From NCBI GenBank assembly GCA_030688545.1, contig JAUYHT010000002.1:240001-272000 (forward strand): a DNA stretch of 32,000 bases. Direction: 5' to 3'. The stretch comes from Candidatus Iainarchaeum sp. Its GTDB lineage: Archaea; Iainarchaeota; Iainarchaeia; Iainarchaeales; VGJJ01. The notes beneath the pieces were generated by a model. That model was not told where the DNA came from. It saw only the letters and a list, made by a program, of their open reading frames with translations, and searched no databases. Below are positions 1,984-29,844 of the stretch, piece by piece; the first letter of the stretch is position 1; each line of letters opens with the position of its first letter. A program made the translations under genes and the position numbers.

Positions 1984-2008
1984 ACCACCATCCTACTCCC
2001 AAAATTCA

Positions 2009-2018
2009 CTTAAATAGG
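2009..2018 (-). promoter_or_regulatory. TATA-like box for proS (CCTATTTAAG on the minus strand)
   Basis: AT-rich box centred about 30 nt upstream of the proS ATG (1983). The same TTAAATAGG word sits upstream of the 10996 gene. Confidence 0.4.
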
Positions 2019-2275
2019 GGCCGGTTTCTCGCGGGCAATGGTACCTGGTTTTTAACTTTTTTTACCCAGGGTTACAATCTGACTTGGGGAAAAAAACGAG
2101 GCCATTCCAACTCGGTTATGTGAATTACGCGGATGCATGAATAGAAAAATCTCCTTTTTCATCCCACTCAAACCTATATTCCCCCTCACTAATTTACATC
2201 TTCATCCATTTGGAAATGATTAGCCGCCCATTCACCCAATCCTTTTTAATCAATCCTCCACCTCTTCCTGGGAGA

Positions 2276-2348
2276 GGGGGAGTAGTATAGCCTGGTAGTA
2301 TGCCACCATGGGGTGGTGGTGACCCCGGTTCAAATCCGGGCTTCCCCA
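2276..2348 (+). tRNA. tRNA-Pro (anticodon GGG)
   Basis: Manual cloverleaf: acceptor GGGGGAG/CTTCCCC, anticodon stem CCACC/GGTGG, loop ATGGGGT (G37), T-arm CCCGG-TTCAAAT-CCGGG, discriminator A. It is 73 nt with no encoded CCA and no intron. Confidence 0.88.
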
Positions 2349-2455
2349 TACCCACATTCCAATTAGGGCGTTCGAAATTAGGGAAGGTTCACCGAGGCCT
2401 CCCGGCTGACTGGTATCCGTCACCCTTTGAGTCAAGGGCTAATATTTTACTGTTT

Positions 2456-3112
2456 TCACACGAATGCATCTTCAAATGTGTTAATTTGAAAGTCTGCTTT
2501 TGTCAATGGGTCAGAACCGTGGTTTCCAATTAGAACTCCCACGGTTAGTATACCTGCGGATTTGGCTGATTCAACTCCTCGACGTGTATCTTCAAACGCA
2601 ATACAGTCTGATGCCGATAATTTTATTTTTTCTAAACTATGAGTATATGATTCAGGGTTTGGTTTATCCTCCAGATAATCCTCGCGTGCAACAATAAAGT
2701 CAAAAGAAGAACGAATTCCGACGTTTTTCAATACCCGCTCAACAATTAGACGTGTACTCCCTGAGCAGATGTTGCAGCTAACCTTTTTTGATTTATAATA
2801 ATCCAAAATATCTAAAACACCAGGAAGAGGAGTGTTGATTCGTTGAATAAGCTGGTAATAAAGGTTTTTGTGTTCTTTTAGCACCATATTTGCATCAACC
2901 TGTATTCCTCTGGATTTGAAAATATCTCCATAAAAACGCAAATCAGGAATTTGGAAATAATCCATTTTTTCTTCAGGGGTCAAACTAATGGCATACTTTG
3001 CCAGGATAGTTTTACTTGCATCAAGGCCTACTTGCTCGGTGTCTACTAAAATACCGTCGAAATCAAAAATGGCGGCTTTTATCTTTTCAGGAAATCGCTT
3101 ATCCAAAGCCAT
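2456..3112 (-). CDS. HAD-superfamily hydrolase (beta-phosphoglucomutase-like subfamily)
   Basis: 218-aa ORF. HAD motif I is FDFDGILVDTE. The C-terminal region AFEDTRRGVESAKSAGI resembles motif IV. The DNA is low-GC. Confidence 0.78.
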   Translation of the reverse strand: MALDKRFPEKIKAAIFDFDGILVDTEQVGLDASKTILAKYAISLTPEEKMDYFQIPDLRFYGDIFKSRGIQVDANMVLKEHKNLYYQLIQRINTPLPGVLDILDYYKSKKVSCNICSGSTRLIVERVLKNVGIRSSFDFIVAREDYLEDKPNPESYTHSLEKIKLSASDCIAFEDTRRGVESAKSAGILTVGVLIGNHGSDPLTKADFQINTFEDAFV

Positions 3113-3114
3113 AT

Positions 3115-3756
3115 TTAGACCTTTTTAGATTGTTTGCTCTTAAGGTAAGATTTGATTATGGATGTTTTACTTTCGTTAATAATATACATGCAATGACGCT
3201 CTTCACGCCAGATTTTTATTGAGCTAAAATCTACATCTTGAGTGGCAGGATTCACACCCAGGGGAATTTTTAGGGTGCCAATATCTTCAAAACCAATTGA
3301 AAAATACAACCTTTTTGCGCGCTCATTCCAATGAGCAAATGTCAATTCGATTGCATCCGCTTTGGAGTCTTGTGCATATCCCATAAGAAACTGCATACCT
3401 AAACGACCTATACCTTTCCCTTGGAAAGCATCTGCGATACATATTCCAAGAATGGGTATTTGTAAGCTTTTACCATTGAAGGAATATTTTTGTGTGATCC
3501 TCCATAGGGCCAAATGACCAATCGGGGTGCCAGAAGGAGAGAATATCAAATAGGACGAATCCTTTCCTGCTTCGTGGCCTGCAATGGCCATTCGGTAATC
3601 TTCTATTTGTTTATCGGTATCCCACCGGTAAGGGGCAAATAGTTCTTTGGAATTTGCGCTAAGAGTATCCGCAAATGCTTTAAGATATTTTTCGTCACCT
3701 CGCTCAAGAGGTCGAACTTCCAGCGATCCAATACAGGAGGGTAAAGTAGACCTCAT
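3115..3756 (-). CDS. GNAT-family N-acetyltransferase
   Basis: 213-aa ORF with motif A QGKGIGRLGMQFLMGYA. It stops 2 nt before the HAD start, so the two are likely co-transcribed. The DNA is low-GC. Confidence 0.72.
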   Translation of the reverse strand: MRSTLPSCIGSLEVRPLERGDEKYLKAFADTLSANSKELFAPYRWDTDKQIEDYRMAIAGHEAGKDSSYLIFSPSGTPIGHLALWRITQKYSFNGKSLQIPILGICIADAFQGKGIGRLGMQFLMGYAQDSKADAIELTFAHWNERAKRLYFSIGFEDIGTLKIPLGVNPATQDVDFSSIKIWREERHCMYIINESKTSIIKSYLKSKQSKKV

Positions 3757-3872
3757 AGATAGAACTAAACTGCCCCATCACCATCTAAATACTTATCTAG
3801 AATGTGATTAATTGACCAAATTTTTCCTATTGGAAAGGTTTACCTCATCCCCGGCCTATAAAGTCCGAACGA

Positions 3873-4634
3873 TCAGGGCACCCTGATCGTGTAGATGCGC
3901 ATTTCCTGCTCGATGACGGTTTTCCCGTCTTTGGTGTGCTGACGCAGGAATTCCATTATCTCTTTCTGTTTAGCTACGGCCTCCTCGCGCCGCATGAAGG
4001 TATTGGAAAATACTTCCAATGCCCATTCTGGGGATTTGAATTGAAAGGGAAGCACGAGTTTGCGCACGGAGACCTTCCACCCCTGTTCCTCGCAGAACGC
4101 GGGAAACGTTTGATCGAACGCTTTGGTTTTCAACACATTATCCGGCTTGGTGAACCCTTCCAAATGGGGCAAGTCCCTCTCACCTGATGTAAACCCTATC
4201 ACGATGGGACATCCTTTTTTGGTTATGCGCACCAACTCCTTGACTATTTTTTCCCATCGAGATTTGGCATAATGAATCACCCACACGCAATACGTGGCAT
4301 CCGACACTTCATCGTCCAATGGCAATCCCACGGAAGGGGATTTAACAACCTGCACTTTATCGCGTAAACCATGCTCACGGACCAATTTTTGGATGGCCGT
4401 CACCGACCAATCGCTCTCCCGAACACAGGTGATAGAGGCCGCTAGTTTAGAAAAAGGCACAACCAACCGACCCGGGTCATAGCCCGCATCGATCACATGC
4501 TTTCCAACGATATTGGCCTCTTCAAGGATGGCGGGCAATTCATGTGTGTCGCGCCGAATGCTGGCCTTCACCATCTCGTGCCAGTAGTCCCAGTAAACGG
4601 GATCTTTAGGGGTGTTGGGAGGGAATGATGCCAT
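3873..4634 (-). CDS. Class-I SAM-dependent methyltransferase-like protein
   Basis: 253-aa ORF. It has a degenerate motif I (HVIDAGYDPG) and a later VRITKKGCPIVIGF strand typical of the Rossmann methyltransferase fold. A TATA-like CCTTAAAAAAAGG lies at 4655-4667. A 10-bp-stem palindrome (ACGATCAGGG-CA-CCCTGATCGT) lies at the 3' end. Confidence 0.55.
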   Translation of the reverse strand: MASFPPNTPKDPVYWDYWHEMVKASIRRDTHELPAILEEANIVGKHVIDAGYDPGRLVVPFSKLAASITCVRESDWSVTAIQKLVREHGLRDKVQVVKSPSVGLPLDDEVSDATYCVWVIHYAKSRWEKIVKELVRITKKGCPIVIGFTSGERDLPHLEGFTKPDNVLKTKAFDQTFPAFCEEQGWKVSVRKLVLPFQFKSPEWALEVFSNTFMRREEAVAKQKEIMEFLRQHTKDGKTVIEQEMRIYTIRVP

Positions 4635-4874
4635 ACCTACTACTAGTCAAACCTCCTTAAAAAAAGGTCCAGGAAAAACCACTTGACTTGCGATTTCTAA
4701 TGATGTGACTTGCCACCCGCTTCACCATAGGTAACATCCCATCCGCTCCTATGTTTCACCCGCCCTATTTTTCACTTACTCCAATATTTTGTCCATTCCT
4801 CTGGGGGATTTGAAACCTCCACCTGAAAGGAAAAAAACGACCTTAAGGAATTCATTTAAAAAGACCAAAATTTT

Positions 4875-5513
4875 ATGCCCCTCATGGCCCAAAGGAAAAT
4901 GTCCAAACAAGAGAAAGAAGCCCTGGTCGCCCGGTTGCAAGCCGGACGTGTGGCAAAGCAGGCTAAAAAAAGGAAACGGAACGCGACCCCTGTTCCAACT
5001 GCAACATCACGCGCGCTCACCCGTCGGCGGTTGAAAGCACGACCCAAACCCAGACCTAAACGTTTACGAAAATCATTGCGCGCGACGCGCGTTTCCCCAC
5101 GAAACACGCGTGTGACGTCGCGCACCCTTTCTGACATCCTGCGTGAATCGGATGCGCGTGATAACCTGCAGCGCGCCAAACGGGCGTTACGGGGTCTACA
5201 TCGGGCCGTCTGGTTCCCCAAAGCGGTGGTGCACTCTAACCAGGTTCACCCGCGTGAACACCATACGATCGAAGAAGAGATTCCCGAGCAGGCGCTCATC
5301 GAACATTGGGAGGCCATCGGGGAACTCAAACGCAAAGGCATCGATATCCGCCACGCGGATTGGCCGGTGCGCATCCCCACGCGATTGAAGGAAATCGAAC
5401 TGGAAACCCCAGTGTCCATGCACGCCCGACGATTTGCCTCCCGTCATGGATTAGTGGTGCGCGAAAGGCTCCCGACCCCCCGCCGGATAGTAGCACGGGT
5501 GTTGGGGCATTAA
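4875..5513 (+). CDS. Hypothetical highly basic (Arg/Lys-rich) protein
   Basis: 212-aa ORF. The N-terminal ~110 aa are low-complexity and K/R-rich. The TATA-like ATTTAAAA at 4854-4861 fits a leaderless start at the second ATG (4884) better than 4875. The antisense frame is also open (4856..5221), so coding status is less certain. Confidence 0.45.
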   Translation: MPLMAQRKMSKQEKEALVARLQAGRVAKQAKKRKRNATPVPTATSRALTRRRLKARPKPRPKRLRKSLRATRVSPRNTRVTSRTLSDILRESDARDNLQRAKRALRGLHRAVWFPKAVVHSNQVHPREHHTIEEEIPEQALIEHWEAIGELKRKGIDIRHADWPVRIPTRLKEIELETPVSMHARRFASRHGLVVRERLPTPRRIVARVLGH

Positions 5514-5527
5514 GGACGACCCCCTCT

Positions 5528-5537
5528 TCTAATAAAT
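5528..5537 (+). promoter_or_regulatory. TATA-like box for lig (TCTAATAAAT)
   Basis: Centred about 25 nt upstream of the ATG at 5558. Confidence 0.4.
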
Positions 5538-5557
5538 CAGGGGTTTCGTGAATAGGT

Positions 5558-7387
5558 ATGGCCTTTGTCGACGTCGCCGCTTCCCTGGAGAAGATTGAAC
5601 AGACGAGTAAACGTCTTGAGATGACGGAACAGCTGGCCGAGCTGTTCGCCCGAACCCCTGCCGAAGAGATGCGGGAAGTCATCTACTTATTGCAAGGGCG
5701 ATTGGCCCCCGCGTATGAGAATATCGAAACAGGGTTAGGGGAGAAATTAGTGGAGCAGGCCATTGCCCATGCAACGGGGTATTCTAAGGAAGAGGTGGCC
5801 AAGCGCTTCAAGAAAACAGGGGATCTGGGGACCACGGCGGAAGAGCTGCTGCAGAAAAAGACCCAGCAGAGCCTGGTGAAACAAACCCTTACCGTGAAGA
5901 AGGTGCACGCTAACTTCATGAAGCTGGCGACCACTGCGGGGACGGGCACCCAAGATACCAAAATCAGATTGCTCGCGGAACTTTTGCACGCCGCCTCCCC
6001 CCTGGAAGCACGGTACATCATTCGGTTCGCCCTGGGAGCTCTTCGATTGGGGGCCGGCGACCCCACCCTAATGGATGCCCTGGCCAAAGTCCATTTGGAT
6101 GAATTCAAGCGGAAGAACCCCGCGCTCATTGAAGAGATAGATGGGAAGACGGATGAGGAAAAGGATAAACGCATCCAATTGAGGCTGCGCGAGACCATTG
6201 AAGCCAAATATAACATCCATGCTGATTTGGGTCATATCGCCGAAAAAATAACCCATAAAGGATTGATAGGGTTAGAGGAAATCGACCTCGAGCCCGGCGT
6301 ACCTATTCGGCCGACACTCGCGGAAAGACTGCCCTTGTCCAAGGATATCATCGCCAAGTTAGGAAAGTGTGCCGTGGAATCCAAATACGATGGATTTAGA
6401 GTTCAGGTGCACAAAAAGGGAAAATCCATCTGGATTTTTTCCCGCAACCTGGAAAAAATGACGGATATGTTTCCCGAAATAGTTGAGGGGGCTCAAAAGC
6501 AGCTCGACGCACAGGATTGTATCGTGGAAGGGGAGGCCTTGGCGGTGAATGAAGAGACGAATGAATTTTTTCCCTTTCAAGTGACGATCCAGCGCAAACG
6601 GAAATATGAGATTGAGGAGAAGGCCAAAGAGCTGCCACTCAAACTATTCCTCTTCGATGCCATGGCCATCAATGGGAAAAATATTATGTCCCTCCCCTTC
6701 GGGGAACGGAGGAAGCAATTGCAGCGCCTCATCGGAAAAGGGAACACCATCGCTCCGACTCATTCCATCATTACGGACCAGGCTGGGGAGATTGACAAAT
6801 TCTTCAATGAGAACGTGGCCCAAGGACTGGAAGGCATCATGTGCAAGGATCTGAACGCTCCCTACATCGCGGGGGCGCGCAAGTTTGCATGGATCAAGCT
6901 CAAGCGATCCTACAAGGGAGAATTACAGGACACAGTGGACCTGGTCATACTTGGTTTTTACAAAGGGAAAGGAAAACGCACCACCTTCGGTTTAGGGGGG
7001 TTATTGGCCGGGGTGTATGAGGAAAAGGAAGACCTGTTCAAATCCGTCACACGCATAGGAACGGGGTTCAGCGAGCAGATGCTGCAGGAACTGCATGACC
7101 TATTATCCAAACATACATCGGAAAGGAAACCCGCCCGCGTGGACTCGGATATTGTACCCGATGTGTGGGTAAAACCCCAATTTGTCGTGGAGGTGCGCGC
7201 GGATGAAATTACGCAAAGTCCGATGCATACCGCCGGCCGAAAGGGAGGGAAAACAGGATACGCGTTGCGCTTTCCCCGCATCCTCCGATTGCGTAGGGAT
7301 AAGGATCCTGAGCAGGCCACGTCGGTGAAGGAAATCATCGACATGTATAAAACCCAGAAACGGGTCTCCCTGAAGGAATCCAGATGA
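5558..7387 (+). CDS. lig: ATP-dependent DNA ligase
   Basis: 609-aa ORF. The adenylation motif I is KYDG (ESKYDGFRVQVHK). The N-terminal DNA-binding domain, OB-fold C-terminus and overall length are typical of archaeal Lig. Confidence 0.93.
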   Translation: MAFVDVAASLEKIEQTSKRLEMTEQLAELFARTPAEEMREVIYLLQGRLAPAYENIETGLGEKLVEQAIAHATGYSKEEVAKRFKKTGDLGTTAEELLQKKTQQSLVKQTLTVKKVHANFMKLATTAGTGTQDTKIRLLAELLHAASPLEARYIIRFALGALRLGAGDPTLMDALAKVHLDEFKRKNPALIEEIDGKTDEEKDKRIQLRLRETIEAKYNIHADLGHIAEKITHKGLIGLEEIDLEPGVPIRPTLAERLPLSKDIIAKLGKCAVESKYDGFRVQVHKKGKSIWIFSRNLEKMTDMFPEIVEGAQKQLDAQDCIVEGEALAVNEETNEFFPFQVTIQRKRKYEIEEKAKELPLKLFLFDAMAINGKNIMSLPFGERRKQLQRLIGKGNTIAPTHSIITDQAGEIDKFFNENVAQGLEGIMCKDLNAPYIAGARKFAWIKLKRSYKGELQDTVDLVILGFYKGKGKRTTFGLGGLLAGVYEEKEDLFKSVTRIGTGFSEQMLQELHDLLSKHTSERKPARVDSDIVPDVWVKPQFVVEVRADEITQSPMHTAGRKGGKTGYALRFPRILRLRRDKDPEQATSVKEIIDMYKTQKRVSLKESR

Positions 7388-7626
7388 AACACAAATTCAA
7401 ACGAATGCTGACCTGGATCTGGCGATGGGGATTATTCGTCCTCGCCTTTCTCATCGTGGTTTTCGCGGTCGTATCCCTGGACACATTCGTCATCGAGCAG
7501 CGCCTCTACTTCCTCCGCGCGGGGGCTTGGGAAGAACTGCTCCTCATCACGGCGTTAGGGTTGCTCATCGCGTATGTCCTGAAACGCCTGCTCGTCCTCC
7601 AATGGAAATGGGGAGTGGGCAAATGA
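7384..7626 (+). CDS. Small membrane protein (two predicted TM helices)
   Basis: 80-aa ORF. Its ATG overlaps the lig stop (ATGA at 7384-7387). Its stop overlaps the next ATG (ATGA at 7623-7626). It has two hydrophobic stretches. Confidence 0.55.
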   Translation: MKHKFKRMLTWIWRWGLFVLAFLIVVFAVVSLDTFVIEQRLYFLRAGAWEELLLITALGLLIAYVLKRLLVLQWKWGVGK

Positions 7627-8597
7627 ACGTGTTCAAGTTGCTGGTCATGGCCGTGGGAGCGGTGGCCCTGCTGTACATTATTCTCCTCCTCTTTGCCCCT
7701 TTGTTTTCAACCCCTCCCAATATTGCACATGCGGCGGAAGGTCTGTTGCTCACCGCCCAAACGGATTTGGGAAAAAGCTATTCCACTACTCTTGATGTGC
7801 GGGCGGAGCAATCATTGGATGCCCGATCCCTCGATGAACCCTCCCGGAGTGTGGCTTTTGCTTGCTCGGGCATAGACTGTTGCGATGATCCCCGGGACTG
7901 CCCCCTCCCCCTTACAGTTAATGCCCAACGCATCCTCTTCCACCAGGATATCCGCACCACCTTTTCGGCGCGTTGTGAGGAAACAGCTGGCATCCACGCG
8001 TGCACGGTGTACGTGGGAAAAAGGCCCGCGCAACTGGAGTGGCGCGACTTAGTGTTGCCGGAAGTTAATAATGGGGATGATCTCCCTTACGTGGCGCAGG
8101 CCACTATCTTTAACACGGGAGAAATAATTTTGAGAGATGTCACCGTATTATTGCGCGTGTATGAATCCCAAGTATTCGCTGGAAACGAGGAAAAGATCAT
8201 CATCCACACGCAGGAACAAATTATCCCAGCACTCGATCCTTCTTCGGGATATCCACTGGCGTTTACGGAAACTATTCTCCCAGGGAATTATACGATCGAC
8301 CTATTTGCCTCCGCCCAGGAAGGGGGATTCGATCGCGTGCGGAAGGACGTGCACATCACGGGAGAGACTATTTCCCTTTGCCAACCTATTCTTGAAAACC
8401 GGGGCCTTGGTACTTGGGATGGGTTTACCGAACTCTGCCGGGCCCAGAGGGATTGCACGGGGTGTACGTTTGCCTTCGAATGTCGGGAGGCCTGGGAGCG
8501 CACCGCGCCACTGTCAGGGGGTGGGTCTTATGATGCGTCCCGGGGGGAGCCAGGGTTCACTTACGCCCTGTACGAGCCGGTAGAGGGGAGTTGTTAA
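7623..8597 (+). CDS. Membrane-anchored or secreted Cys-rich protein with a CARDB-like beta-sandwich segment
   Basis: I chose the internal ATG at 7623 (MNVFKLLVMAVGAVALLYIILLLF hydrophobic anchor). The 7425 start would overlap the previous ORF out of frame. The middle region ATIFNTGEIILRDVTVLL...LPGNYTIDLFA resembles CARDB. It has several Cys residues, mostly in two clusters (CSGIDCCDDPRDC and CRAQRDCTGCTFAFEC). Confidence 0.6.
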   Translation: MNVFKLLVMAVGAVALLYIILLLFAPLFSTPPNIAHAAEGLLLTAQTDLGKSYSTTLDVRAEQSLDARSLDEPSRSVAFACSGIDCCDDPRDCPLPLTVNAQRILFHQDIRTTFSARCEETAGIHACTVYVGKRPAQLEWRDLVLPEVNNGDDLPYVAQATIFNTGEIILRDVTVLLRVYESQVFAGNEEKIIIHTQEQIIPALDPSSGYPLAFTETILPGNYTIDLFASAQEGGFDRVRKDVHITGETISLCQPILENRGLGTWDGFTELCRAQRDCTGCTFAFECREAWERTAPLSGGGSYDASRGEPGFTYALYEPVEGSC

Positions 8598-9240
8598 TGG
8601 CCCAATCCATGAAATCGCGAATAATATAGGGGTGGCCCACTTCCGGGTGGAAGGATAGCCCTAAAATGCGTTTTTGGGGATGCACGAAGCCCGAAATGGG
8701 GCAGGAGGGGCTGGAAAAGCATAGGAATGCCCCTTTGAATAAAATTGATGAGGATGGGGGAGAAGAAGAGGCGGACAGTGGGATAAAGGGGGCTGGGGAG
8801 GTGGATGAGACGCTGGGGAGGGTGACTTCCTTGGCATGCAGGGAATACACCCGAATGGAAGAAGGCACGTTTTCAAGGAAAGGAAAATTGCCCTTTTTAC
8901 GAATGAGATTCATTCCTATCAAAGGGACTTTTCGTGCTTTCACGCGGGCCCCAAAAAGGCGGGCGAGGAACTGCTGTCCGGCACAGATACCCACCATGGG
9001 GATGTCCACATTCCGTAGCCAGGCTAATCGTTTGACGTGCGCCTCATACGTGAAATCCTGCACTGGGCAACCGGAGAAGATGATGGCCCGCGCCGGCCGC
9101 ACATGCTTCTTTCCTAATTTGGAAATGGGAACGACCGTTGAAGGAAACTGGAGCGCCCGCTGGAGGGGCCAAGCAAATTCTCTCATGGTGAGGAGGGAAG
9201 ACATTCCAGAATTGACGACGAGGATATGATCCATGCTCAT
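8557..9240 (-). CDS. Class-I glutamine amidotransferase (GATase1) domain protein with an S/P-rich insertion
   Basis: 227-aa ORF. The nucleophile elbow is GICAGQQFL and the His-x-Glu motif is LSFHPEV, so the triad appears intact. It has an unusual insert, SVSSTSPAPFIPLSASSSPPSSS. Its ATG overlaps the upstream stop (ATGA at 9237-9240). Confidence 0.68.
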   Translation of the reverse strand: MSMDHILVVNSGMSSLLTMREFAWPLQRALQFPSTVVPISKLGKKHVRPARAIIFSGCPVQDFTYEAHVKRLAWLRNVDIPMVGICAGQQFLARLFGARVKARKVPLIGMNLIRKKGNFPFLENVPSSIRVYSLHAKEVTLPSVSSTSPAPFIPLSASSSPPSSSILFKGAFLCFSSPSCPISGFVHPQKRILGLSFHPEVGHPYIIRDFMDWAINNSPLPARTGRK

Positions 9241-10007
9241 GTGGATTTTCTCCTTTTTCCATTTTTCATTTTTCCTTTTTTATTTTTTCTATTTTTGTTT
9301 TTGGGAAAGGGGATAATCGGTTTGTGAATCGCTTGCAATTCCCGGATGTGCCGGGTGCCCTGCAGCCCTATCCATTCATCCTCGAAGCGCCGCACGCGGA
9401 GACGCTCATGGAAGAATGGCGCATCGAGGACGAAGCTCTCGAATTCCCCCCCTTCGCCTATGGGGGAAACACCATGGGAGGATTCCAATGAAAATAATAC
9501 GGGAGAATGATTCTCATCAATGGTTTTCCCCAACCATTCTTTCTCCAGTCCCCGCGCGGCCACCGCGACTAACATGATTTCAAAGCCCCGCGTATGCAAC
9601 TCATGCCAATGCGCCCGAGGAGATGATTGCCAGAGGGGATTGAAACACCATAACCCCATATCCCAACAGATACGCTGGATGCGGGAGGCCTGGTAAGTCG
9701 AATACACCGCACCCGTAACCACTCCTTCAATTCCACAAGTCTCTTTCAATGCCCCGAGCACGCGTTTCAGATCCACATACTCCCGCGTTTTCTTACCGGA
9801 GGTGGGCACAAAAACTAAAGGGAGTCGCATGCTCGCCGCCTGAGTCTTCGTCCACGTGATATTAGGCACATGAAAGAGGAATGATTCCTTGTTCTCGGGC
9901 GCCATGGCCACCAAGCAAACTATCTCATGCCCCGCCTGCTTTGCAATATGCAGGGCGAGCGTGGAATCCTTCCCCCCCGAGAACAAAGAAGCGAGGCGCA
10001 TGGTCAT
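9237..10007 (-). CDS. dph6: Dph6/MJ0570-type PP-loop ATP pyrophosphatase (diphthine-ammonia ligase family)
   Basis: 256-aa ORF. The PP-loop is SGGKDS near the N-terminus. It also has NPLW and GEGGEFESFV motifs typical of the ATP_bind_4/diphthamide synthase family, and a Lys-rich C-terminal tail. Confidence 0.78.
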   Translation of the reverse strand: MTMRLASLFSGGKDSTLALHIAKQAGHEIVCLVAMAPENKESFLFHVPNITWTKTQAASMRLPLVFVPTSGKKTREYVDLKRVLGALKETCGIEGVVTGAVYSTYQASRIQRICWDMGLWCFNPLWQSSPRAHWHELHTRGFEIMLVAVAARGLEKEWLGKTIDENHSPVLFSLESSHGVSPIGEGGEFESFVLDAPFFHERLRVRRFEDEWIGLQGTRHIRELQAIHKPIIPFPKNKNRKNKKGKMKNGKRRKST

Positions 10008-10996
10008 TCCTTCCTGCTTCGGTTCAAGGCGATTTGGACGACTTTTCCCCGTCGGCGTCGTTTCTGTTTCTGCATGCGGCGATCGAGTTCGTCAAATAGA
10101 TCATCGTAATCGACCTTCTTGTCGTAGGAAGAAGTCCCGATAACGGCGGCAGTAAACGATATTGGTTTCCACCGGCGCTGGGCCAATAACCCTTTGACAA
10201 ACTCGAGTCCCATATTTTTACTCAATTTTTTCCACCAGTGTTGGTCTTGTTTTCCCTTCCTCCAACGTTTACTCAATTCCATGACTTCATCCCGAAATTC
10301 TGGGGAGTCAGTATCCCGAAGGTAATTTTCCTGCAACATTTTTATCAATGTGAATGCCGTCGCGGGATCTTTACGGAAAAATAGATAATATTCATCTCCA
10401 CCCATCCTACCAGCATAACCATTTCCTATTGCCGCCACCTGGGATAACATTTCAGTGAATCGGGATAATGTAACGTTTCCCACTTTTTGTCCGAAACGCT
10501 TGTTGATCCTTCCGAAACGATCGAGGTCGATGACGATTGCTGAAAAAGGCTGGTGATTAGGCTCGCGAAGCGCCTCATACACCCTCGCTTTGAACATGGA
10601 ATCATTCACGACGAGTGGGGTTTGGTGGTGATGAGTCAGTGATTTGGCAGTAATCTCCCGCATCACTCGCGCTAGCCGTCGGATCCCACGGTAGGTTCCA
10701 ATTACCCGATTTCTCTCCTCGGGAGAAAGGGTTTTCAAATGGCGCGTGAATCTGGGGTCATGGAAAAGGGAGGAGGTCCTTCGCTCAAATTGGGTGACCA
10801 GATTCAGGGAAGAGACGAGTTTTTGGGGATCCGCAATGAGCTCCCTCCCCTGTCTCGCTTGTTGATGATATTCATAGTAAAGCCCCAGGCTGCGGAATGC
10901 GTCCGTCCTGATTCGACTGGATGGTGTCAGTATATTAATTAGCCAATCCACCTTACGCTCCTTCTTTCGACGGGGGCGGAAAGGGAGAACGGGCAT
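10004..10996 (-). CDS. GGDEF-domain (diguanylate-cyclase-like) protein with an unknown N-terminal domain
   Basis: 330-aa ORF. IVIDLDRFGRINKRFGQKVGNVTL...GRMGGDEYYLFF aligns without gaps to the canonical GGDEF palm. The C-terminal ISFTAAVIG...DELDRRMQKQK matches the last strand and helix. Confidence 0.7.
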   Translation of the reverse strand: MPVLPFRPRRKKERKVDWLINILTPSSRIRTDAFRSLGLYYEYHQQARQGRELIADPQKLVSSLNLVTQFERRTSSLFHDPRFTRHLKTLSPEERNRVIGTYRGIRRLARVMREITAKSLTHHHQTPLVVNDSMFKARVYEALREPNHQPFSAIVIDLDRFGRINKRFGQKVGNVTLSRFTEMLSQVAAIGNGYAGRMGGDEYYLFFRKDPATAFTLIKMLQENYLRDTDSPEFRDEVMELSKRWRKGKQDQHWWKKLSKNMGLEFVKGLLAQRRWKPISFTAAVIGTSSYDKKVDYDDLFDELDRRMQKQKRRRRGKVVQIALNRSRKE

Positions 10997-11015: not shown

Positions 11016-11026
11016 CCTATTTAACC
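11016..11026 (-). promoter_or_regulatory. TATA-like box for the GGDEF operon (GGTTAAATAGG on the minus strand)
   Basis: Centred about 25 nt upstream of the ATG at 10996. Confidence 0.45.
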
Positions 11027-11175: not shown

Positions 11176-12090
11176 ATGCAACCACATATAGTAGGGTTGG
11201 GGGGAAATGCCCTCATTCGAATGCACCAATTAGGGGATTTCACGCAGCAATTGAAAAACGTGCAACGCACGTGCCGCGCGCTCGCCACCTATGCGGGGAA
11301 AGGAAACCCATTGGTTATTACTCATGGGAATGGGCCACAAGTGGGAAATCTGGAACTCCAGATGCGCGCCGCTTCCCCAAACGTTCCTCAGATGCCATTG
11401 GACGTGGAAGGGGCGATGACGCAAGGGCAGATTGGGCACCTCCTCTTCCTGGGGTTGAAAAAATGGAAACCCACATTGGAAATAAGCATGATCCTGACTC
11501 ACGTGGAAGTGGATCCCAAGGATTATGCATTCAAAATCCCCACCAAACCCATCGGACCCTGGTATTCCCATTCCACCCATCTCACGCGCCACCGGATTCC
11601 CTTTCTCCACGATCCCAAAAAAGGGTTCAGACGGTTAGTGGCCTCTCCCAACCCTCAAAAAATAATTGAATTGGACGCCATCCGCACATTGTTGAAACAA
11701 GGCCACGTGGTCATTGCCGGGGGAGGCGGGGGCATCCCCGTGTTTAGAAACAAAATGGGTTACCGGGGCGCGGAAGGCGTCATCGATAAGGATCTGGCAT
11801 CCTCCCTGCTCGCCACCCGACTGAAGGCGCATCAGCTCACTATTCTTACGGATGAATCCCACGTATACACCCAATTCGCCACTCGCCATCCACGCCCCAT
11901 TCTCCATATGAATAGACGCGAGGCCCGCGCCCATCTGAGGAAAGGGGAATTCGGGGAAGGGAGCATGCGACCTAAAATAGAGGCCGGACTCCGATTCCTT
12001 CAAAAAGGGGGAAGGGTTGTGCACATCGGGCATACCGACGACGCGAAACAGGTGATGATGGGTGAAAAAGGGACGCGCATCTATCCATGA
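11176..12090 (+). CDS. arcC: Carbamate kinase
   Basis: 304-aa ORF with GLGGNAL at the N-terminus, the THGNGPQVG motif and IAGGGGGIPV. Confidence 0.9.
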   Translation: MQPHIVGLGGNALIRMHQLGDFTQQLKNVQRTCRALATYAGKGNPLVITHGNGPQVGNLELQMRAASPNVPQMPLDVEGAMTQGQIGHLLFLGLKKWKPTLEISMILTHVEVDPKDYAFKIPTKPIGPWYSHSTHLTRHRIPFLHDPKKGFRRLVASPNPQKIIELDAIRTLLKQGHVVIAGGGGGIPVFRNKMGYRGAEGVIDKDLASSLLATRLKAHQLTILTDESHVYTQFATRHPRPILHMNRREARAHLRKGEFGEGSMRPKIEAGLRFLQKGGRVVHIGHTDDAKQVMMGEKGTRIYP

Positions 12091-13063
12091 GATAGATTCC
12101 ATTCTAAGCTCCAGGCCCTTCCGCCAATTGAAAGGAAAGGATTTCCTGAACACACATGATATTACCTCCCATCAAATGGACGACATCCATTCCCTCGCGG
12201 GCCTCCTCAAAAGAATGCACCAGCACCACGAGGGATTACCTCCCCTACTCCACCAGAAAGCCGTGGCCTTGCTCTTCGAGAAGCCCTCCACCCGCACGCG
12301 CACGTCGTTCGATGTGGGCATCCATCTGCTGGGTGGACACAGTTTTTTTATCGACAAAACCACCACCCAAATGTCCCGGGGAGAAGACTGGAAGGATACC
12401 ACTCTCACGTTAACCCAATACACGGATGCCCTAATGGCCCGGGTGTTCGAACATACGACGCTGGAACAGATGGCCCGCTTCTCTTCCAAACCCGTGATCA
12501 ACGGTCTCACGAATGAAAACCACCCCTGCCAAATCCTTTCGGATTTATTCACGATGCGGGAACATTACGGGACGCTCGACGGGTTAACAGTCATGTATGC
12601 TGGGGTCTCCGATAATGTTACGGATTCCCTCCTCGTGGGATGCGCGATGATGGGAATGGACATCATCGTGGCCTCCCCACCCCCTTTCAAGGTGTCGCCG
12701 AAATACCTCGCGATCGCCAGGAAATTATCCAAGAAGACCGGAAGCGCCATTACCGTATTTCCCCGCATTCCTGAATTAAAAATATTGAAACAAGTGAACG
12801 TGGTCTACACCGATGAATGGGAAAGCATGCACATGCACCTCGACAAGAAGAAGATGCTACCCCTTCTGCGCCCCTTCCAGGTGAATGAAAAATTGATGGG
12901 AAAATGCGCCCGGGGCGCCAAGATGATGCACTGCCTCCCCGCCATCAAAGGGGAGGAAGTATCCCCAACTATCATGTATGGGAAATATTCTCTCGTGTGG
13001 GAACAGGCCCAAAACAGGATGTGGGCGCAAATGGCTTTGTTGAGTGGGTTGCTGCGTGATTAG
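12062..13063 (+). CDS. argF: Ornithine carbamoyltransferase-family transcarbamylase
   Basis: 333-aa ORF with STRTRTSF (carbamoyl-P site), HPCQ and HCLP motifs. The usual SMG ornithine loop reads SMH. It overlaps arcC by 29 nt, so the start is uncertain. Confidence 0.85.
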   Translation: MKKGRASIHEIDSILSSRPFRQLKGKDFLNTHDITSHQMDDIHSLAGLLKRMHQHHEGLPPLLHQKAVALLFEKPSTRTRTSFDVGIHLLGGHSFFIDKTTTQMSRGEDWKDTTLTLTQYTDALMARVFEHTTLEQMARFSSKPVINGLTNENHPCQILSDLFTMREHYGTLDGLTVMYAGVSDNVTDSLLVGCAMMGMDIIVASPPPFKVSPKYLAIARKLSKKTGSAITVFPRIPELKILKQVNVVYTDEWESMHMHLDKKKMLPLLRPFQVNEKLMGKCARGAKMMHCLPAIKGEEVSPTIMYGKYSLVWEQAQNRMWAQMALLSGLLRD

Positions 13064-14275
13064 ATGGGCCGTTCTACGCTTATCCAACGCGGGCTCGAAG
13101 GCAACCTCTGGAAACTGCTCGCGTATACTATCTCCCAGCGCCGAAACTTTTTCCCTATCTTGTCCATCTATTTCCTCACCCTCCCGGGAGCAGATGCCCA
13201 GCAGATAGGGTTGTACTCTGCCATCGGATTCCTGGTTTCCTTCCTGATTGAAATACCTTCTGGATACATGGCCGATCATATTGGGCACCGGAAAACACTC
13301 ATCCTGAGCAAAGTGTTCATGGTGCTCTCTACCCTATCCTTCCTCACCGCGAACAGTCTGCCAGGATTCATACTCGGGGCATCTTTTTTATCCCTTTCAT
13401 TCGCTTTCCAATCGGGCACCCTCACGGCCTTCCTCTATGACACCCTCCAATCCCTGAAGCGGGAGAAGGAGTATGCCCGCCAACATAGTCGGATTGCGGC
13501 CAATGGCTCACTTGTGAGCATGGTGCTTATGTTCAGCCTGCCATTCCTGGTTCCCATTGACATCCGCCTGCCATTCCTCATCGTGTTGGCCTTCGACCTC
13601 GTGGGAATGGCCATCGTGTTCGCGCTGAAAGATCCTCCCGTGGAAAAAGAGCACCGCGCCCAACCCTATCAATCCATAACAAAACTCATCCATGACGCCA
13701 AGGAATCAGGAATGCTTCCCTTCGTGATGTTCACAGGATTAATCGGGGGATTCATGATAGGCATCTCGGCCTTCCGAGAACCCTATCTCCTATCCTTGGG
13801 GATGCCAATTGCCCTTATTGGATTGGTCATGGGAGGATCGCGGCTTATCTGGTATGTCGTGGGAACCCACATCCAGCACCTGGAAAAATTCCCTTTCCGG
13901 CGACTTATCCAGGCCGAACTGTTCCTCTTCCCGGGGATGTTCATCCTCGCCTCGGTGATTCAGGAAGTTTTCCTCACCGCGCTCATTTTCATGCTTACGT
14001 TGGGGTACCTCTGGGGCCGCTCCCACCTCATGGAGGATTACTTCATCCGCACCTACATCCGCCAGCCCAAATACAAAGCCACCCTCCTCTCCATCCATTC
14101 CCAAGTCTCCCTCATCATCCAAGCCCTCGTGGCTGGGGGCGCCGGTTATCTCATGGCCCAATCCTATTCCTTAGGTTTCCTGGTGTCAGGGATCTCCCTT
14201 TTCCTTTTACTTGGAATGGTCTACTTGTTTCTGCAACCCCAACTCAGGCGGGGCGTGGGAATAGCCGACCATTGA
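13064..14275 (+). CDS. MFS transporter
   Basis: 403-aa ORF, multi-TM, with MFS motif A-like GYMADHIGHRKTLIL. Its ATG directly abuts the OTC stop (TAGATG). Confidence 0.78.
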   Translation: MGRSTLIQRGLEGNLWKLLAYTISQRRNFFPILSIYFLTLPGADAQQIGLYSAIGFLVSFLIEIPSGYMADHIGHRKTLILSKVFMVLSTLSFLTANSLPGFILGASFLSLSFAFQSGTLTAFLYDTLQSLKREKEYARQHSRIAANGSLVSMVLMFSLPFLVPIDIRLPFLIVLAFDLVGMAIVFALKDPPVEKEHRAQPYQSITKLIHDAKESGMLPFVMFTGLIGGFMIGISAFREPYLLSLGMPIALIGLVMGGSRLIWYVVGTHIQHLEKFPFRRLIQAELFLFPGMFILASVIQEVFLTALIFMLTLGYLWGRSHLMEDYFIRTYIRQPKYKATLLSIHSQVSLIIQALVAGGAGYLMAQSYSLGFLVSGISLFLLLGMVYLFLQPQLRRGVGIADH

Positions 14276-14439
14276 ATGGGTGGAATAGGTACATTTTTAC
14301 CATAGGGAAATTTTCCCCCATGAGGAAAAATTGTAGCCCACTAGAAATGGGTGGTATTGCTTTTCAGAAAGCAGGTAACCCTATATAGAACTGAGGGCCA
14401 ACTCCATATGCAAGCCCACATTTTCAGGAGGCCACCCGC

Positions 14440-14820
14440 ATGATTGGATACACCACTAATATCGAAAAGGAAACACTTGACAACACCGCTTACCGGCGCG
14501 TACTGTTCACCGGTAAAAAGATGCAATTAGTGGTGATGACGCTCAGGCCGCAGGAAGACATCCCCCTGGAGACGCACCCGGACACGGACCAATTTATTCG
14601 CGTGGAAAAAGGAGAGGCCTTGGTGAAAATAGGAAGTGAAGAGAACAAAGTGTCTGAAGACGAAATGATCATTATTCCGGCGGGGAATGCGCATTACGTG
14701 AAGAACACCTCCACGGAGGAAGATTTGAAGATCTACACCCTATATTCGCCCCCCGAACACCCGGAAGGAACGGTTCAACAAACTAAAGCGGAAGCGGATG
14801 CGGCGGAAAAGGATCATTGA
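14440..14820 (+). CDS. Cupin-domain protein
   Basis: 126-aa ORF with cupin motifs (ETHPDTDQFIRVEKGEA and IIIPAGNAHYVKN). It is preceded by a GGAGG Shine-Dalgarno sequence (14425-14429) and a TATA-like CTATATAG near 14383-14390. Confidence 0.7.
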   Translation: MIGYTTNIEKETLDNTAYRRVLFTGKKMQLVVMTLRPQEDIPLETHPDTDQFIRVEKGEALVKIGSEENKVSEDEMIIIPAGNAHYVKNTSTEEDLKIYTLYSPPEHPEGTVQQTKAEADAAEKDH

Positions 14821-14831
14821 TCAAACATCCA

Positions 14832-14944
14832 TTTGAAAAAAGGTGCACGAAAAAACAAAAAAAAAATGGGGCGGGAGAGATTCGGAACGCACCTTTTGAA
14901 AAAAGGTGCACGAAAAAACAAAAAAAAATGGGGCGGGAGAGATT
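14832..14944. repeat. Tandem duplication (two units, 63-nt period) containing the tRNA-Pro(CGG) 3' end plus its T-rich trailer
   Basis: 14832-14882 and 14895-14944 are identical except for one A in a homopolymer. Each ends with TGGGGCGGGAGAGATT, the complement of the tRNA 3' end. A 9-bp-stem hairpin (GCACCTTTT-gaa-AAAAGGTGC) lies at 14889-14909. Confidence 0.9.
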
Positions 14945-15001
14945 TGAACTCTCGTCGACACCTCCCGAAGGTGCCATCCTACCAGGCTAGACGACCGCCC
15001 C
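14929..15001 (-). tRNA. tRNA-Pro (anticodon CGG)
   Basis: The reverse complement folds as acceptor GGGGCGG/CCGCCCC, anticodon stem GCACC/GGTGT, loop TTCGGGA (G37), T-arm GAGAG-TTCAAAT-CTCTC, discriminator A. It is 73 nt. Confidence 0.9.
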
Positions 15002-15167
15002 AAAGGGTAGCTAGGATGAAATGGTTTGATTGGGTACCCATATAATGGGCACGCATCCTTCTTCCCCTCCGGGTGTAAATAGGGCACAGACGATTTTACC
15101 TGGCCTAACCAGAGGGAGGTGCCGGTTAGGGGATTTCTATTAAATCCTCTTAATGGCTGGCTGAGGC

Positions 15168-16382
15168 ATGGAACCCTACACGCGCATCACCCTCGTGTTC
15201 GCGGTCTTCTCTATGGCCGTGGTGCTCGTGGACCCTATTTTTGCGTTGTACTTGACCCAAGAGGGATATGGAACTATTGAGATAACGGTTCTCCTCTCTG
15301 CCTTCGCCCTCGCGGGGATGGTGGCAGCCCCCTTATTGGGTGGAATGTCAGACCATTGGGGAAGGAGACCCATTATTTTGGCTGGAATATTGTTTGCCAT
15401 GATCGCCTACTCCTTATATGCCTTCATCAACAATCCCATTGTCATTTTTCTCGCGCGAATACTCGAGGGTATCGCGTACGTGGCCGTGATACTTGCGGCC
15501 ATCGCGAAGATGGAAGACATTGTCGTGAATGAAAAAACAAAAAAGGCCAGCACGCGCGTCGGAATGAGTTTGTCCATTGGAAAAATAGGGCATGTTGTGG
15601 GACCCCTCCTGGGGGGAATTATCGCGACGTATTATGGAATTATTTCTCCCTTTCTCGCGGCCGTCATCGTACTGGGAATCATTGGAATATGGTATTTTTT
15701 CCAAAAACACAACACGCACCCGATTCCAAAACTGAGAGAATTAACATTCAACCCCATTCCACTTGTTCAGGAGTTCTGGAAAAACAAACCCCTACGCGGA
15801 TTGAGCGCGCTGGTAATAACGCACCAATTCAGCATCTCGGTGCTATTCGTTTTTCTCCCCCTTTTCATGGTGAAAGATTTGGGTTATTCCATTGAACTCG
15901 TTGGAATTGCCCTCTTCGTGAAAGAAGTGCCTCAGCTCATTCAGTTCCTCGCGGGAAAACTCACAGACTCCTGGGGAAGCAAGCACGTGGTGATCCTCGG
16001 AACTACGCTCTGCGGGGTGTCGATGGTGGCGCTCTCTTTCTTCCACACTTTCGATTGGATACTGGTGGCGCTCTTCGTGTATGGAATGGGAGGAAGCCTC
16101 ATGGGGATTAGTACGATTGCACTCCTCTCTGGGTTTGCCGAACAAACCAAGCAAGAAGGATCTTTCCTCGGGAGCCACGTGGCCATTTCCAGAATAGGCG
16201 CCTTCCTCGGATTCATTATCTCGGGAATCGTGGTTCAACTCACGAGCATCCCCACCCTCTTTGCGGTGGCGGGAACGCTCATTCTCGTGGGAATCGTAAT
16301 AGGAGAAGAGTACTTGGCCTCGCATACCTTCTATTTACCCAAACCCAAGCACCTTCTTTCGGCCCTCTTTCACCACCGGTAA
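15168..16382 (+). CDS. MFS transporter
   Basis: 404-aa ORF, roughly 12 TM helices, with motif A GGMSDHWGRRPIILAG. A TATA-like CTATTAAATCC at 15137-15147 is centred about 26 nt upstream. Confidence 0.8.
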   Translation: MEPYTRITLVFAVFSMAVVLVDPIFALYLTQEGYGTIEITVLLSAFALAGMVAAPLLGGMSDHWGRRPIILAGILFAMIAYSLYAFINNPIVIFLARILEGIAYVAVILAAIAKMEDIVVNEKTKKASTRVGMSLSIGKIGHVVGPLLGGIIATYYGIISPFLAAVIVLGIIGIWYFFQKHNTHPIPKLRELTFNPIPLVQEFWKNKPLRGLSALVITHQFSISVLFVFLPLFMVKDLGYSIELVGIALFVKEVPQLIQFLAGKLTDSWGSKHVVILGTTLCGVSMVALSFFHTFDWILVALFVYGMGGSLMGISTIALLSGFAEQTKQEGSFLGSHVAISRIGAFLGFIISGIVVQLTSIPTLFAVAGTLILVGIVIGEEYLASHTFYLPKPKHLLSALFHHR

Positions 16383-28742: not shown

Positions 28743-28876
28743 ACGATTTGCCCCCGCGGAAGAGCCTTTAAAAGCATTCTTTATGGCAGATTAGAAAGCG
28801 AGATAAGTGTGCGAAGATATGGGTTCCTAGAAAGGAAACCTAACGCTTTTTCGCCATCCTTTTCCGCAAAAAGGTT

Positions 28877-28950
28877 GCACCGGTAGCTTAGCCTGGTAGA
28901 GCACCCGACTGATAATCGGGAGGTCGGAGGTTCAAATCCTCCCCGGTGCA
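28877..28950 (+). tRNA. tRNA-Ile (anticodon GAT)
   Basis: Acceptor GCACCGG/CCGGTGC, D-arm GCTT-AGCCTGGTA-GAGC, anticodon stem CCCGA/TCGGG, loop CTGATAA, T-arm GGAGG-TTCAAAT-CCTCC, discriminator A. It is 74 nt. Confidence 0.92.
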
Positions 28951-29066
28951 TACACCGTTCCATCGGTGTGGTGCGGTATAGAAAGATTGTTTCAACACCC
29001 CTCAGCTGGCCATTTTCTTTGACTGGGCGCTACTTTCTTTTCTTAAAAGAAAGGAGTGCGTTCCCG

Positions 29067-29735: not shown

Positions 29736-29840
29736 TTATCACCACACCCCTAAAGAGAAAAAGTGGTGATAACTCGCCCCTGTAGCGGACCCACCTCACA
29801 AGTTATCACCACATTTTATAAAGTGTTTTGTGGTGATAAC
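29736..29840. promoter_or_regulatory. Two copies of the palindromic operator TTATCACCAC-N17-GTGGTGATAA, the second enclosing the Fic TATA box
   Basis: Half-sites lie at 29736-29745 and 29763-29772, and at 29803-29812 and 29830-29839. Both spacers are exactly 17 nt. The TATA-like TTTTATAAAG (29814-29823) sits in the second spacer, about 26 nt upstream of the ATG at 29845. Confidence 0.65.
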
Positions 29841-29844
29841 ATTT

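Follow-up and report, generated by a model that had tools for sequence, protein, structure and literature searches.

Diguanylate cyclases (DGCs), the GGDEF-domain enzymes that produce cyclic diguanylate (c-di-GMP), are almost exclusively bacterial (PMC10249747), and according to Römling those GGDEF proteins that occur on contigs assigned to archaea 'need to be confirmed' (PMC10086821). Within the GGDEF family, the established specificity switch is the Asp to Ser/Thr replacement of the Hypr enzymes, which needs the GGDE[F/Y] form of the signature motif for geometric reasons, and natural Ser/Thr-type Hypr enzymes carry GGDE[F/Y] exclusively (PMC6456294). A literature search found no paper describing an archaeal GGDEF family or tying the Iainarchaeota/Diapherotrites to GGDEF or c-di-GMP, beyond a generic DGC gene count in ultra-small metagenome-assembled genomes (MAGs). 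Here we describe a stand-alone GGDEF gene in a 32,000-nt stretch of DNA (hereafter, the window) from Candidatus Iainarchaeum sp., of the phylum Candidatus Iainarchaeota (positions 240,001 to 272,000 of contig JAUYHT010000002.1, assembly GCA_030688545.1). With moderate confidence, and judging from sequence comparison, we propose that it encodes a catalytically competent stand-alone GGDEF nucleotide cyclase, inherited vertically within a clade of the Iainarchaeota, with c-di-GMP as its most likely product.

Identification of the GGDEF domain

The window open reading frame (ORF) was confirmed to encode a GGDEF-domain protein. It matches PF00990 with an E-value of 3e-14 and 53.5 bits (cutoff 23.8), over a first aligned stretch at aa 130-222 and a second one, and TIGR00254 with 51.2 bits (cutoff 37.4). 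A first-pass annotation of this DNA, made without database searches, had proposed a GGDEF-type cyclase and named such a profile search as a check. PF00990 was likewise found in all ten aligned members of the family described below (best E-value 6.3e-22). Searching all PDB sequences with phmmer returned 43 chains at E<=10, led by 6eib_A (4.8e-7); 42 of these carry a GGDEF domain by molecule name, the exception being an adenylate-cyclase toxin fragment with an E-value of 1.1. The 330-aa protein corresponds exactly to GenBank entry MDP2666239.1, labelled 'MAG: diguanylate cyclase [Candidatus Diapherotrites archaeon]' and located on a 418,565-nt contig, and a second assembly contains an identical partial copy (P0001). 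The protein belongs to the GGDEF family and represents no new kind of enzyme; NCBI's automated annotation already names it a diguanylate cyclase.

The phmmer alignment to PleD (2wb4_A) pairs residues 149-214 of the window protein with PleD residues 319-382, and maps D157 to D327, N165 to N335, Q170 to H340, N174 to D344 and the GGDEY motif (199-203) to GGEEF (368-372). These correspondences bear out the residue mapping of the first-pass annotation, including the replacement of GH by GQ at position 170, a site that varies among His, Gln, Asn and Tyr across the family. The same annotation had described the alignment to the PleD palm as gap-free, which does not hold: HMMER sets a one-residue indel between alpha2 and the GGDEY hairpin, and the mapping upstream of the indel is unaffected.

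The structure of the window protein was predicted with AlphaFold2 (AF2) using a ten-sequence family alignment, yielding a full-length model with a predicted local distance difference test score (pLDDT) of 80.7 and a predicted template-modelling score (pTM) of 0.60. In the model, the palm core follows the order beta1-alpha1-alpha2-beta2-beta3-alpha3-[insertion]-beta4-alpha4-beta5, with beta1 at 151-158, alpha1 at 161-168, alpha2 at 170-190, beta2 at 194-199, beta3 at 202-207, alpha3 at 211-229, beta4 at 281-288, alpha4 at 297-314 and beta5 at 319-323. A Foldseek search of the PDB with this model returned GGDEF cyclases for all top 50 hits, with PleD at 2e-8. Template-modelling (TM) scores, normalised to the targets, which are isolated GGDEF domains, were 0.78 for 6eib_A (root-mean-square deviation 3.0) and 0.82, the highest, for 5euh_A (root-mean-square deviation 2.5). 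Structure prediction, another check named beforehand, hence points to a GGDEF palm fold.

Conservation of the active site

Direct translation confirmed the DLD, INK and GGDE(Y) motifs reported in the first-pass annotation (Table 1). A comparison of 14 distinct lineages, whose members are only 24-34% identical to the window protein, revealed that D157, D159, F161, N165, G173, R197, G199, G200, E202 and K312 are invariant, as are W276, F281 and G287 around beta4, and that the position equivalent to PleD R446 (R316 in the window protein) is occupied by Arg or Lys across the family. The invariant residues match those given for PleD as binding the metals, the base and the phosphates (PMC12943098).

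The position of the transition-state Lys (PleD K332) is occupied by Gly in the window protein (position 162), which presents a Lys at position 166. These two positions strictly covary in about 20 archaeal lineages, appearing either as (G,K) or as (K,non-K). The (G,K) combination was observed in seven core lineages and in P0029/P0279, and the remaining lineages present Lys followed by Thr, Ser, Glu or Asp. Among 248 other GGDEF hits, 222 show (K,D), and a Lys occurs at the second site five times, never alongside a Lys at the first. K166 may hence be the catalytic Lys, relocated by one helical turn along alpha1. The strict covariation argues for selection to keep one catalytic Lys and, in turn, for catalysis under selection.

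The alignment also agrees with the reported lack of an inhibitory site (I-site). The RxxD motif that would lie five residues upstream of GG[DE]E[FY] is absent from every family member, the window protein presenting IGNG in its place. Judged by its aligned residues, the GGDEF protein is apparently catalytically competent, with every residue known as needed for catalysis retained, provided that K166 serves as the relocated Lys.

Distribution, phylogeny and gene order of the archaeal family

When 1.84 billion representative proteins were searched exhaustively with HMMER, nine full-length relatives (P0002-P0010; 273-321 aa) emerged, with E-values from 7e-38 to 2e-17. They are 26-34% identical to the window protein by phmmer, and their matches reach into the N-terminal region, mostly from about query residue 10-35. 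Hits below P0010 are generic GGDEF proteins (E>=1.7e-14) in which the GGDEF domain alone is covered. Word-indexed searches started from the window protein and from profiles of the family and of the N-domain recovered only that protein, P0010 and a fragment (P0278). Scanning one genome per GTDB species yielded seven full-length loci (L001-L007), all of them in archaeal MAGs that bear the label 'uncultured archaeon' or 'Candidatus Iainarchaeum'; from an E-value of 2e-12 onwards, the hits are bacterial and confined to the GGDEF domain. A metagenome scan added just one new partial locus (L082), its other hit, L081, being the same contig as L006; the family is thus rare.

A neighbour-joining tree including the 50 best other hits recovered the family as monophyletic in 46 of 50 bootstraps. 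The first-pass annotation had called for a phylogeny to tell a recent bacterial transfer from an archaeal clade, and this tree favours the clade. Several more distant relatives also lie next to archaeal genes: P0031 (L164) adjoins the carbamate kinase gene arcC and the ornithine carbamoyltransferase (OTCase) gene, P0013 is near an archaeal-type prolyl-tRNA synthetase (ProRS), and P0279 and P0073 lie between flavin reductase and GatD genes, with GatE near the former and the ligase module near the latter. P0011, P0012 and P0093 are found in bacterial contexts. The archaeal relatives, which include P0013, P0029, P0031, P0073 and P0083, are short (243-294 aa) and basic (isoelectric point, pI, of 10.0-11.0), and keep a W-x(3)-SF[ST]AG motif. 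This distribution is suggestive of a small radiation of GGDEF proteins in these archaea.

The gene neighbourhood was compared in 11 loci, comprising the window, L001-L007 and three further contigs obtained by exact-protein look-up (L161-L163). In 11 of 11, a divergent arcC precedes the GGDEF gene, which is followed in the same orientation by the genes for Dph6 and a class-I glutamine amidotransferase (GATase). The fuller order in those loci places OTCase beyond arcC, in the orientation of arcC, and continues past the GATase with three convergent genes, encoding a conserved secreted protein, an 80-aa membrane protein and, outermost, a DNA ligase. The window also contains several archaeal markers: GatE, an amidotransferase subunit specific to archaea (NF003107, 731 bits), the archaeal Dph6, a three-domain Lig1-type ATP-dependent DNA ligase and a family-I ProRS with an archaeal/eukaryotic C-terminal domain. 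At 0.49, the gene region differs little in GC content from the window as a whole (about 0.50).

The GGDEF stop and the Dph6 start overlap by 4 nt, and so do the Dph6 and GATase genes, forming a co-oriented trio in the window; the first of these overlaps makes co-transcription of the GGDEF and Dph6 genes probable. Of the 11 loci, eight have a TATA-like box some 30 nt upstream of their ATG. Seven of these (L001-L004, L006, L007 and L161) share, at about that distance from the GGDEF start, an almost unchanged TTTGGAATTTATATAG element within the very short divergent intergenic region common with arcC. From its sequence and position, the upstream element is probably a promoter with a transcription factor B recognition element (BRE) and TATA box, giving rise to a leaderless or short-leader mRNA.

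Identical gene order in 11 loci, archaeal flanks, TATA-like boxes and monophyly of the family jointly exclude contamination, chimerism and recent transfer. The PF00990 match, the flanking markers and the conserved synteny hence uphold the original proposal of a stand-alone GGDEF-type cyclase in an archaeal, non-chimeric locus, and the bacterial or chimeric contig that was to count against it was not found. The GGDEF gene is inherited vertically within a clade of the Iainarchaeota (Diapherotrites, DPANN) while diverging fast.

Domain anatomy

The GGDEF palm is preceded by an all-helical, very basic domain, connected to it by a linker (aa 120-126) of low confidence in the AF2 model. Modelled alone, this N-domain reached a pLDDT of 80.9. 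The absence of a recognisable sensor noted in the first-pass annotation was sustained by every search, with the length of the region revised from about 140 to about 120 aa: the N-domain has no Pfam match, its best match among PDB sequences is DnaK at an E-value of 0.034, taken as chance, and its Foldseek search returned nothing at E<0.3, with only generic helical bundles and designed proteins beyond. The N-domain is specific to the Iainarchaeota GGDEF family, and the family alignment revealed conserved residues in it at Y40, R48, G50, R51, P57, F60, F83, Y102 and R113. The domain ends in an amphipathic helix (aa 92-120), in which hydrophobic residues are conserved at 98, 102, 105/106, 109, 112 and 115, a 3-4 periodicity that fits either bundle packing or a dimeric stalk. 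The N-domain, with its terminal helix running into the GGDEF domain, constitutes a putative dimerisation stalk or regulatory module. At the junction (aa 123-135), the family shares an HxxTPxVLNRRxF motif that resembles DxLTGLxNRRxF, which we take to be the usual start of GGDEF domains.

An extra segment was also confirmed ahead of beta4, where a basic insertion of about 45 aa had been described. The segment is not a single insertion; it comprises a family-wide helix of about 25 aa between alpha3 and beta4, starting at aa 232, and a 21-aa stretch (HWWKKLSKNMGLEFVKGLLAQ, aa 253-273) unique to the window protein and located within that helix. The 21-aa stretch is also present in the copy from the second assembly (P0001), and AF2 assigns it a pLDDT below 50. 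All family members are markedly basic, with a pI of 10.4-11.6 and a net charge of +23 to +39, against a median pI of 9.0 for neighbouring proteins.

Table 1. Location of the GGDEF gene, its domains and motifs, and adjacent elements in the window.
Feature	Position	Strand	Evidence and remarks
GGDEF gene, complete	10004..10996	-	ATG start, 330 aa, stand-alone; ORF and Pfam/NCBIfam matches
N-terminal all-helical, very basic domain, aa 1-120	10637..10996	-	AF2 helices within aa 11-120; pI 11.4
GGDEF palm domain, aa 121-325	10022..10636	-	PF00990, AF2, Foldseek
DLDRFGRINK, aa 157-166	10499..10528	-	D157, metal-binding Asp (PleD D327); N165, base-contacting Asn (N335)
Codon for N174	10475..10477	-	PleD D344 equivalent (Watson-Crick-edge base reader); translation and phmmer mapping
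GGDEY active-site hairpin, aa 199-203	10388..10402	-	Translation; preceded by R197 (PleD R366)
21-aa insertion, aa 253-273	10178..10240	-	Alignment, translation; unique to window protein, within family-wide helix
TATA-like box TTAAATA (GGTTAAATAGG at -28)	11018..11024	-	Sequence; centred about 25 nt upstream of ATG
Dph6 (archaeal diphthine-ammonia ligase)	9237..10007	-	TIGR03679, 254 bits (cutoff 197)
Class-I GATase	8557..9240	-	PF00117; weak GuaA N-terminal similarity
Carbamate kinase (arcC)	11176..12090	+	TIGR00746, 298 bits; divergent neighbour marking the syntenic slot

The base-reading position and product specificity

Translation and the alignment to 2wb4_A both place an Asn (N174) at the position of PleD D344, as first reported. 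Within the family, position 174 is Asn in 5 of 14 lineages (the window protein, P0003, P0004, P0006 and L004) and Asp in the other nine. The N-type members were monophyletic in 0 of 50 bootstraps, L004 falling in a different subclade from the remaining four, and this scattering implies at least two changes at the position. Asp is present at the equivalent position in all distant archaeal relatives and hence appears to be ancestral. The D/N distribution among orthologues rules out Asn as a signature of the family.

The first-pass annotation had taken the D344 substitution as an indication of a non-canonical nucleoside triphosphate (NTP) preference, or even of an oligonucleotide synthase. No specific support was obtained for the latter. 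In its first form, the hypothesis holds that Asn at this position, together with GGDEY and GQ, directs the enzyme to cyclic GMP-AMP (cGAMP), c-di-AMP or a mixture, instead of c-di-GMP. It draws on the substitution of N174 for the Asp by which guanine is read at its Watson-Crick edge, and on the idea that the amide of Asn could pair in bidentate fashion with guanine (O6/N1-H) or, if flipped, with adenine (N6-H/N1), so that some loss of discrimination is conceivable. Furthermore, GGDE[F/Y] takes the place of GGEEF in just two family members, both of them N-type, and is also the exclusive form of the motif in natural Ser/Thr-type Hypr enzymes (PMC6456294), and Asn is enriched in the family relative to other, mostly bacterial, GGDEF hits, of which 6 of 244 (about 2.5%) present it in a sample biased by its selection for similarity to an N-type query. 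These associations are countered, however, by the alternation of Asp and Asn among orthologues in one and the same slot, by the repeated origin of Asn and by the uniform Asp of the distant archaeal relatives. Three N-type members retain GGEEF, the known switch is from Asp to Ser/Thr, and the literature search found no report of a D-to-N (D344N-type) GGDEF variant. The 'Goldilocks' distance argument is also inapplicable, given that Asn and Asp are of the same length; the GGDE[F/Y] constraint of the Hypr enzymes does not carry over to a residue isosteric with Asp. A shift in NTP preference is consequently unlikely. The simplest reading of orthologues that toggle between Asp and Asn in a conserved slot is functional near-equivalence, and Asn is probably a tolerated variant rather than a new specificity. 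Relaxed purine specificity in the N-type members, with some drift towards ATP, is possible.

Proposed mechanism and alternative explanations

In the mechanism that we propose, two subunits would form a homodimer by way of their helical N-domains and the amphipathic helix that ends each of these, in which each GGDEF domain would load one purine NTP-Mg2+. D157 and D201/E202 would bind the metals, N165 and N174 would contact the base, and R197, K312 and R316 would contact the phosphates, with K166 taking over from the usual Lys of position 162. Two reciprocal 3'-OH attacks would then generate a 3',3'-cyclic dinucleotide, most probably c-di-GMP, since the canonical Asn/Asp guanine-reading pair is present in 9 of 14 lineages and in all distant archaeal relatives. 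The lack of an I-site suggests that there would be no feedback inhibition by the product, and hence that control would be exerted either over transcription, at the divergent promoter region of arcC and the GGDEF gene, or via the basic N-domain. We infer the dimerisation mode, the product, the relocation of the Lys and the promoter function from the comparisons described above.

Several observations weigh against this proposal. Compared with the residues of a strictly GTP-specific DGC, the window protein departs at D344 (N174, with N165 present) and formally also at K332, so that both canonical residues are missing from it. Dimerisation through the N-domain is deduced from a model of the monomer with a pTM of 0.60. 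Neither the window nor 176 kb of related archaeal loci yielded an EAL, HD-GYP or PilZ gene, a weak negative because these loci amount to a fraction of each genome; in this search, EAL-, PilZ- and HD-GYP-containing queries were compared with phmmer against six-frame ORFs of the 176 kb, and only GGDEF genes were matched, via the GGDEF domains of the queries. An Rfam scan of the window and the same 176 kb identified tRNAs only and no c-di-GMP riboswitch, and the archaea examined so far have not yielded c-di-GMP (PMC10249747). Lastly, the GGDEF proteins of L001-L007 are 27-31% identical to the window protein, compared with 50-75% for housekeeping neighbours; taken singly, the neighbouring proteins reach 59-75% (ligase), 51-68% (Dph6), 41-66% (OTCase) and 27-36% (GATase). 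This fast divergence may stem from a loosened constraint beyond the active site, or from a change of partners.

Some of these observations would also be expected if the domain were enzymatically silent and served as a nucleotide sensor, receptor or scaffold, like degenerate bacterial GGDEF domains. The lack of a partner phosphodiesterase or effector gene nearby, the missing K332 and D344 and the quick divergence between genomes all fit this scenario. Degenerate GGDEF domains, however, normally lose the signature motif, and here GG[DE]E[FY], both metal ligands, R366, K442 and the basic residue equivalent to R446 are kept in every lineage, and the Lys seems to have been relocated rather than lost. 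We therefore regard a silent domain as quite improbable.

The strongly basic character of the family has a bearing on a further alternative, in which the protein would be a nucleotidyltransferase associated with polyanions or nucleic acids, acting on or activated by RNA or DNA and producing linear or cyclic oligonucleotides in the manner of Cas10/mCpol. The high pI and charge of all family members, the pI of 11.4 of the N-domain and its want of any known fold relative, and the similarly basic distant relatives are in keeping with such a role. The neighbouring proteome is itself fairly basic, however, the profile and fold matches are exclusively to GGDEF cyclases, with none to Cas10/mCpol, and the Asn/Asp pair with which dinucleotide cyclases typically read the base is conserved. 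No Cas10/mCpol or defence match was obtained for the GGDEF protein in Pfam, PADLOC or the top 50 Foldseek hits, and the gene has no defence-type neighbours. This alternative appears, if anything, slightly less probable still than a silent domain.

Contamination by bacterial DNA, chimerism of the contig or a very recent transfer from bacteria, which the overwhelmingly bacterial occurrence of GGDEF domains (PMC10249747, PMC10086821) and the bacterial origin of the nearest relatives examined outside the archaeal group might suggest, is ruled out by synteny across 11 independent assemblies with archaeal markers on both sides, is opposed by the 4-nt overlap with archaeal Dph6, the archaeal TATA-like boxes, the monophyly of such divergent members and an unremarkable GC content, and has a negligible probability.

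Beyond the proposed c-di-GMP cyclase, a more far-reaching model may be contemplated, although we give it low credence: the Iainarchaeota might run the first archaeal GGDEF cyclic-dinucleotide pathway with effectors unrelated to PilZ, EAL or riboswitches, a basic N-domain coupling synthesis to a polyanion such as nucleic acid, and, in the Asn-type members, a product broadened to mixed purine dinucleotides.

Other features of the window

The genes for Dph6 and a class-I GATase are found one after the other, usually overlapping, in all loci examined, which hints at a glutamine-dependent two-subunit diphthamide synthetase. Given that the whole region is syntenic and that DPANN genomes are compact, the adjacency of the GGDEF gene to these two constitutes weak evidence for a functional link with them. 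In L005 (Ca. Iainarchaeum NC_groundwater_1145, the most divergent core genome) about 1.3 kb (4730-6092) separates the GGDEF gene from that of Dph6, an interval that is tight elsewhere. On the opposite flank, carbamate kinase and OTCase genes are followed by two MFS transporter genes (11176-16382), an arrangement that amounts to part of an arginine-deiminase-type module; the window showed no gene for arginine deiminase itself. Wherever a locus covers that flank, arcC and OTCase are paired beside the GGDEF gene, as they also are in the distant relative P0031.

Beside the ligase, the gene for the 80-aa predicted membrane protein (7384-7626, + strand) overlaps the ligase stop by 4 nt, and a 390-aa ORF (7425-8597, + strand) encodes a Cys-rich protein that has a single hydrophobic helix at its N-terminus and matches no family. 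The latter ORF is probably over-extended, with its true start near 7605. This pair is conserved next to the ligase in related archaeal loci with called genes, including the distant relative L170. Two stretches of low GC content were also detected. The first (0.41-0.42; 2001-4000) begins at about tRNA-Pro (2276-2348) and contains HAD-hydrolase and GNAT acetyltransferase genes, followed by a methyltransferase gene (3873-4634); it may be an insertion, since the interval from ProRS to ligase is shorter in relatives. The second (0.39-0.43), just after tRNA-Ile (28876-28951), harbours a gene for a Fic-domain protein (29830-30789) that matches the PADLOC SoFic and PDC-S04 models, and may be an integrated or defence island.

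Comparison with known systems

The locus supplies, for one lineage, the confirmation of archaeal GGDEF genes that Römling had found wanting. Its natural D-type and N-type orthologues constitute a defined set of enzymes with which to ask whether archaea make c-di-GMP, and also what effect an Asn has at the specificity position. The value of the locus lies in making archaeal use of c-di-GMP testable, not in the specificity residue itself.

The closest described systems are the bacterial DGCs, such as PleD, WspR and DgcB/DgcR. The archaeal family shares with them the profile family, the predicted palm fold, a GG[DE]E[FY] hairpin preceded by an Arg, an Asp that binds the metal, an Asn that contacts the base and a pair of Lys and Arg towards the C-terminus, and the helix leading into the archaeal GGDEF domain is reminiscent of the coiled-coil stalks of DgcB and WspR. 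It differs from them in its archaeal host, in the lack of an RxxD I-site, in the presence of either Asn or Asp at the D344 position, in the K332 Lys, which half of the lineages appear to have moved along alpha1 by four residues, in the extra alpha3-beta4 helix of about 25 aa (with 21 additional aa in the window protein), and in a basic helical N-domain, with a protein pI above 10, instead of REC, PAS or GAF sensors. The window protein is probably a diguanylate cyclase that operates in the manner of PleD or DgcB. Its departures from the canonical bacterial enzymes are a lineage-restricted, syntenic archaeal distribution, the basic N-domain, the alpha3-beta4 insertion, the putative Lys relocation and the D/N polymorphism.

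With the Hypr enzymes (GacA of Geobacter, Bd0367), the window protein has in common a substituted reader of the Watson-Crick edge and a GGDE[F/Y] motif. The Hypr enzymes, however, are bacterial proteins with Ser/Thr at the reader position (PMC6456294), a REC-domain architecture and a signature cross-dimer residue, whereas the archaeal Asn is not fixed among orthologues. Despite its GGDEY motif, the window protein is hence not a Hypr GGDEF, given that its reader is Asn and not Ser/Thr. The family also resembles small stand-alone or degenerate bacterial GGDEF proteins (GdpS/YybT-type non-cyclases) in being short, with a single GGDEF domain and no classical sensor, but those proteins have degenerate active-site motifs and the archaeal family appears to retain all catalytic residues. 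Finally, Cas10 and mCpol, cyclic oligoadenylate synthases that are found in archaea, possess a related RRM-like palm with a GGDD/GGDEF-type hairpin (PMC2904730); unlike them, the archaeal GGDEF gene lies outside any CRISPR or CARF context.

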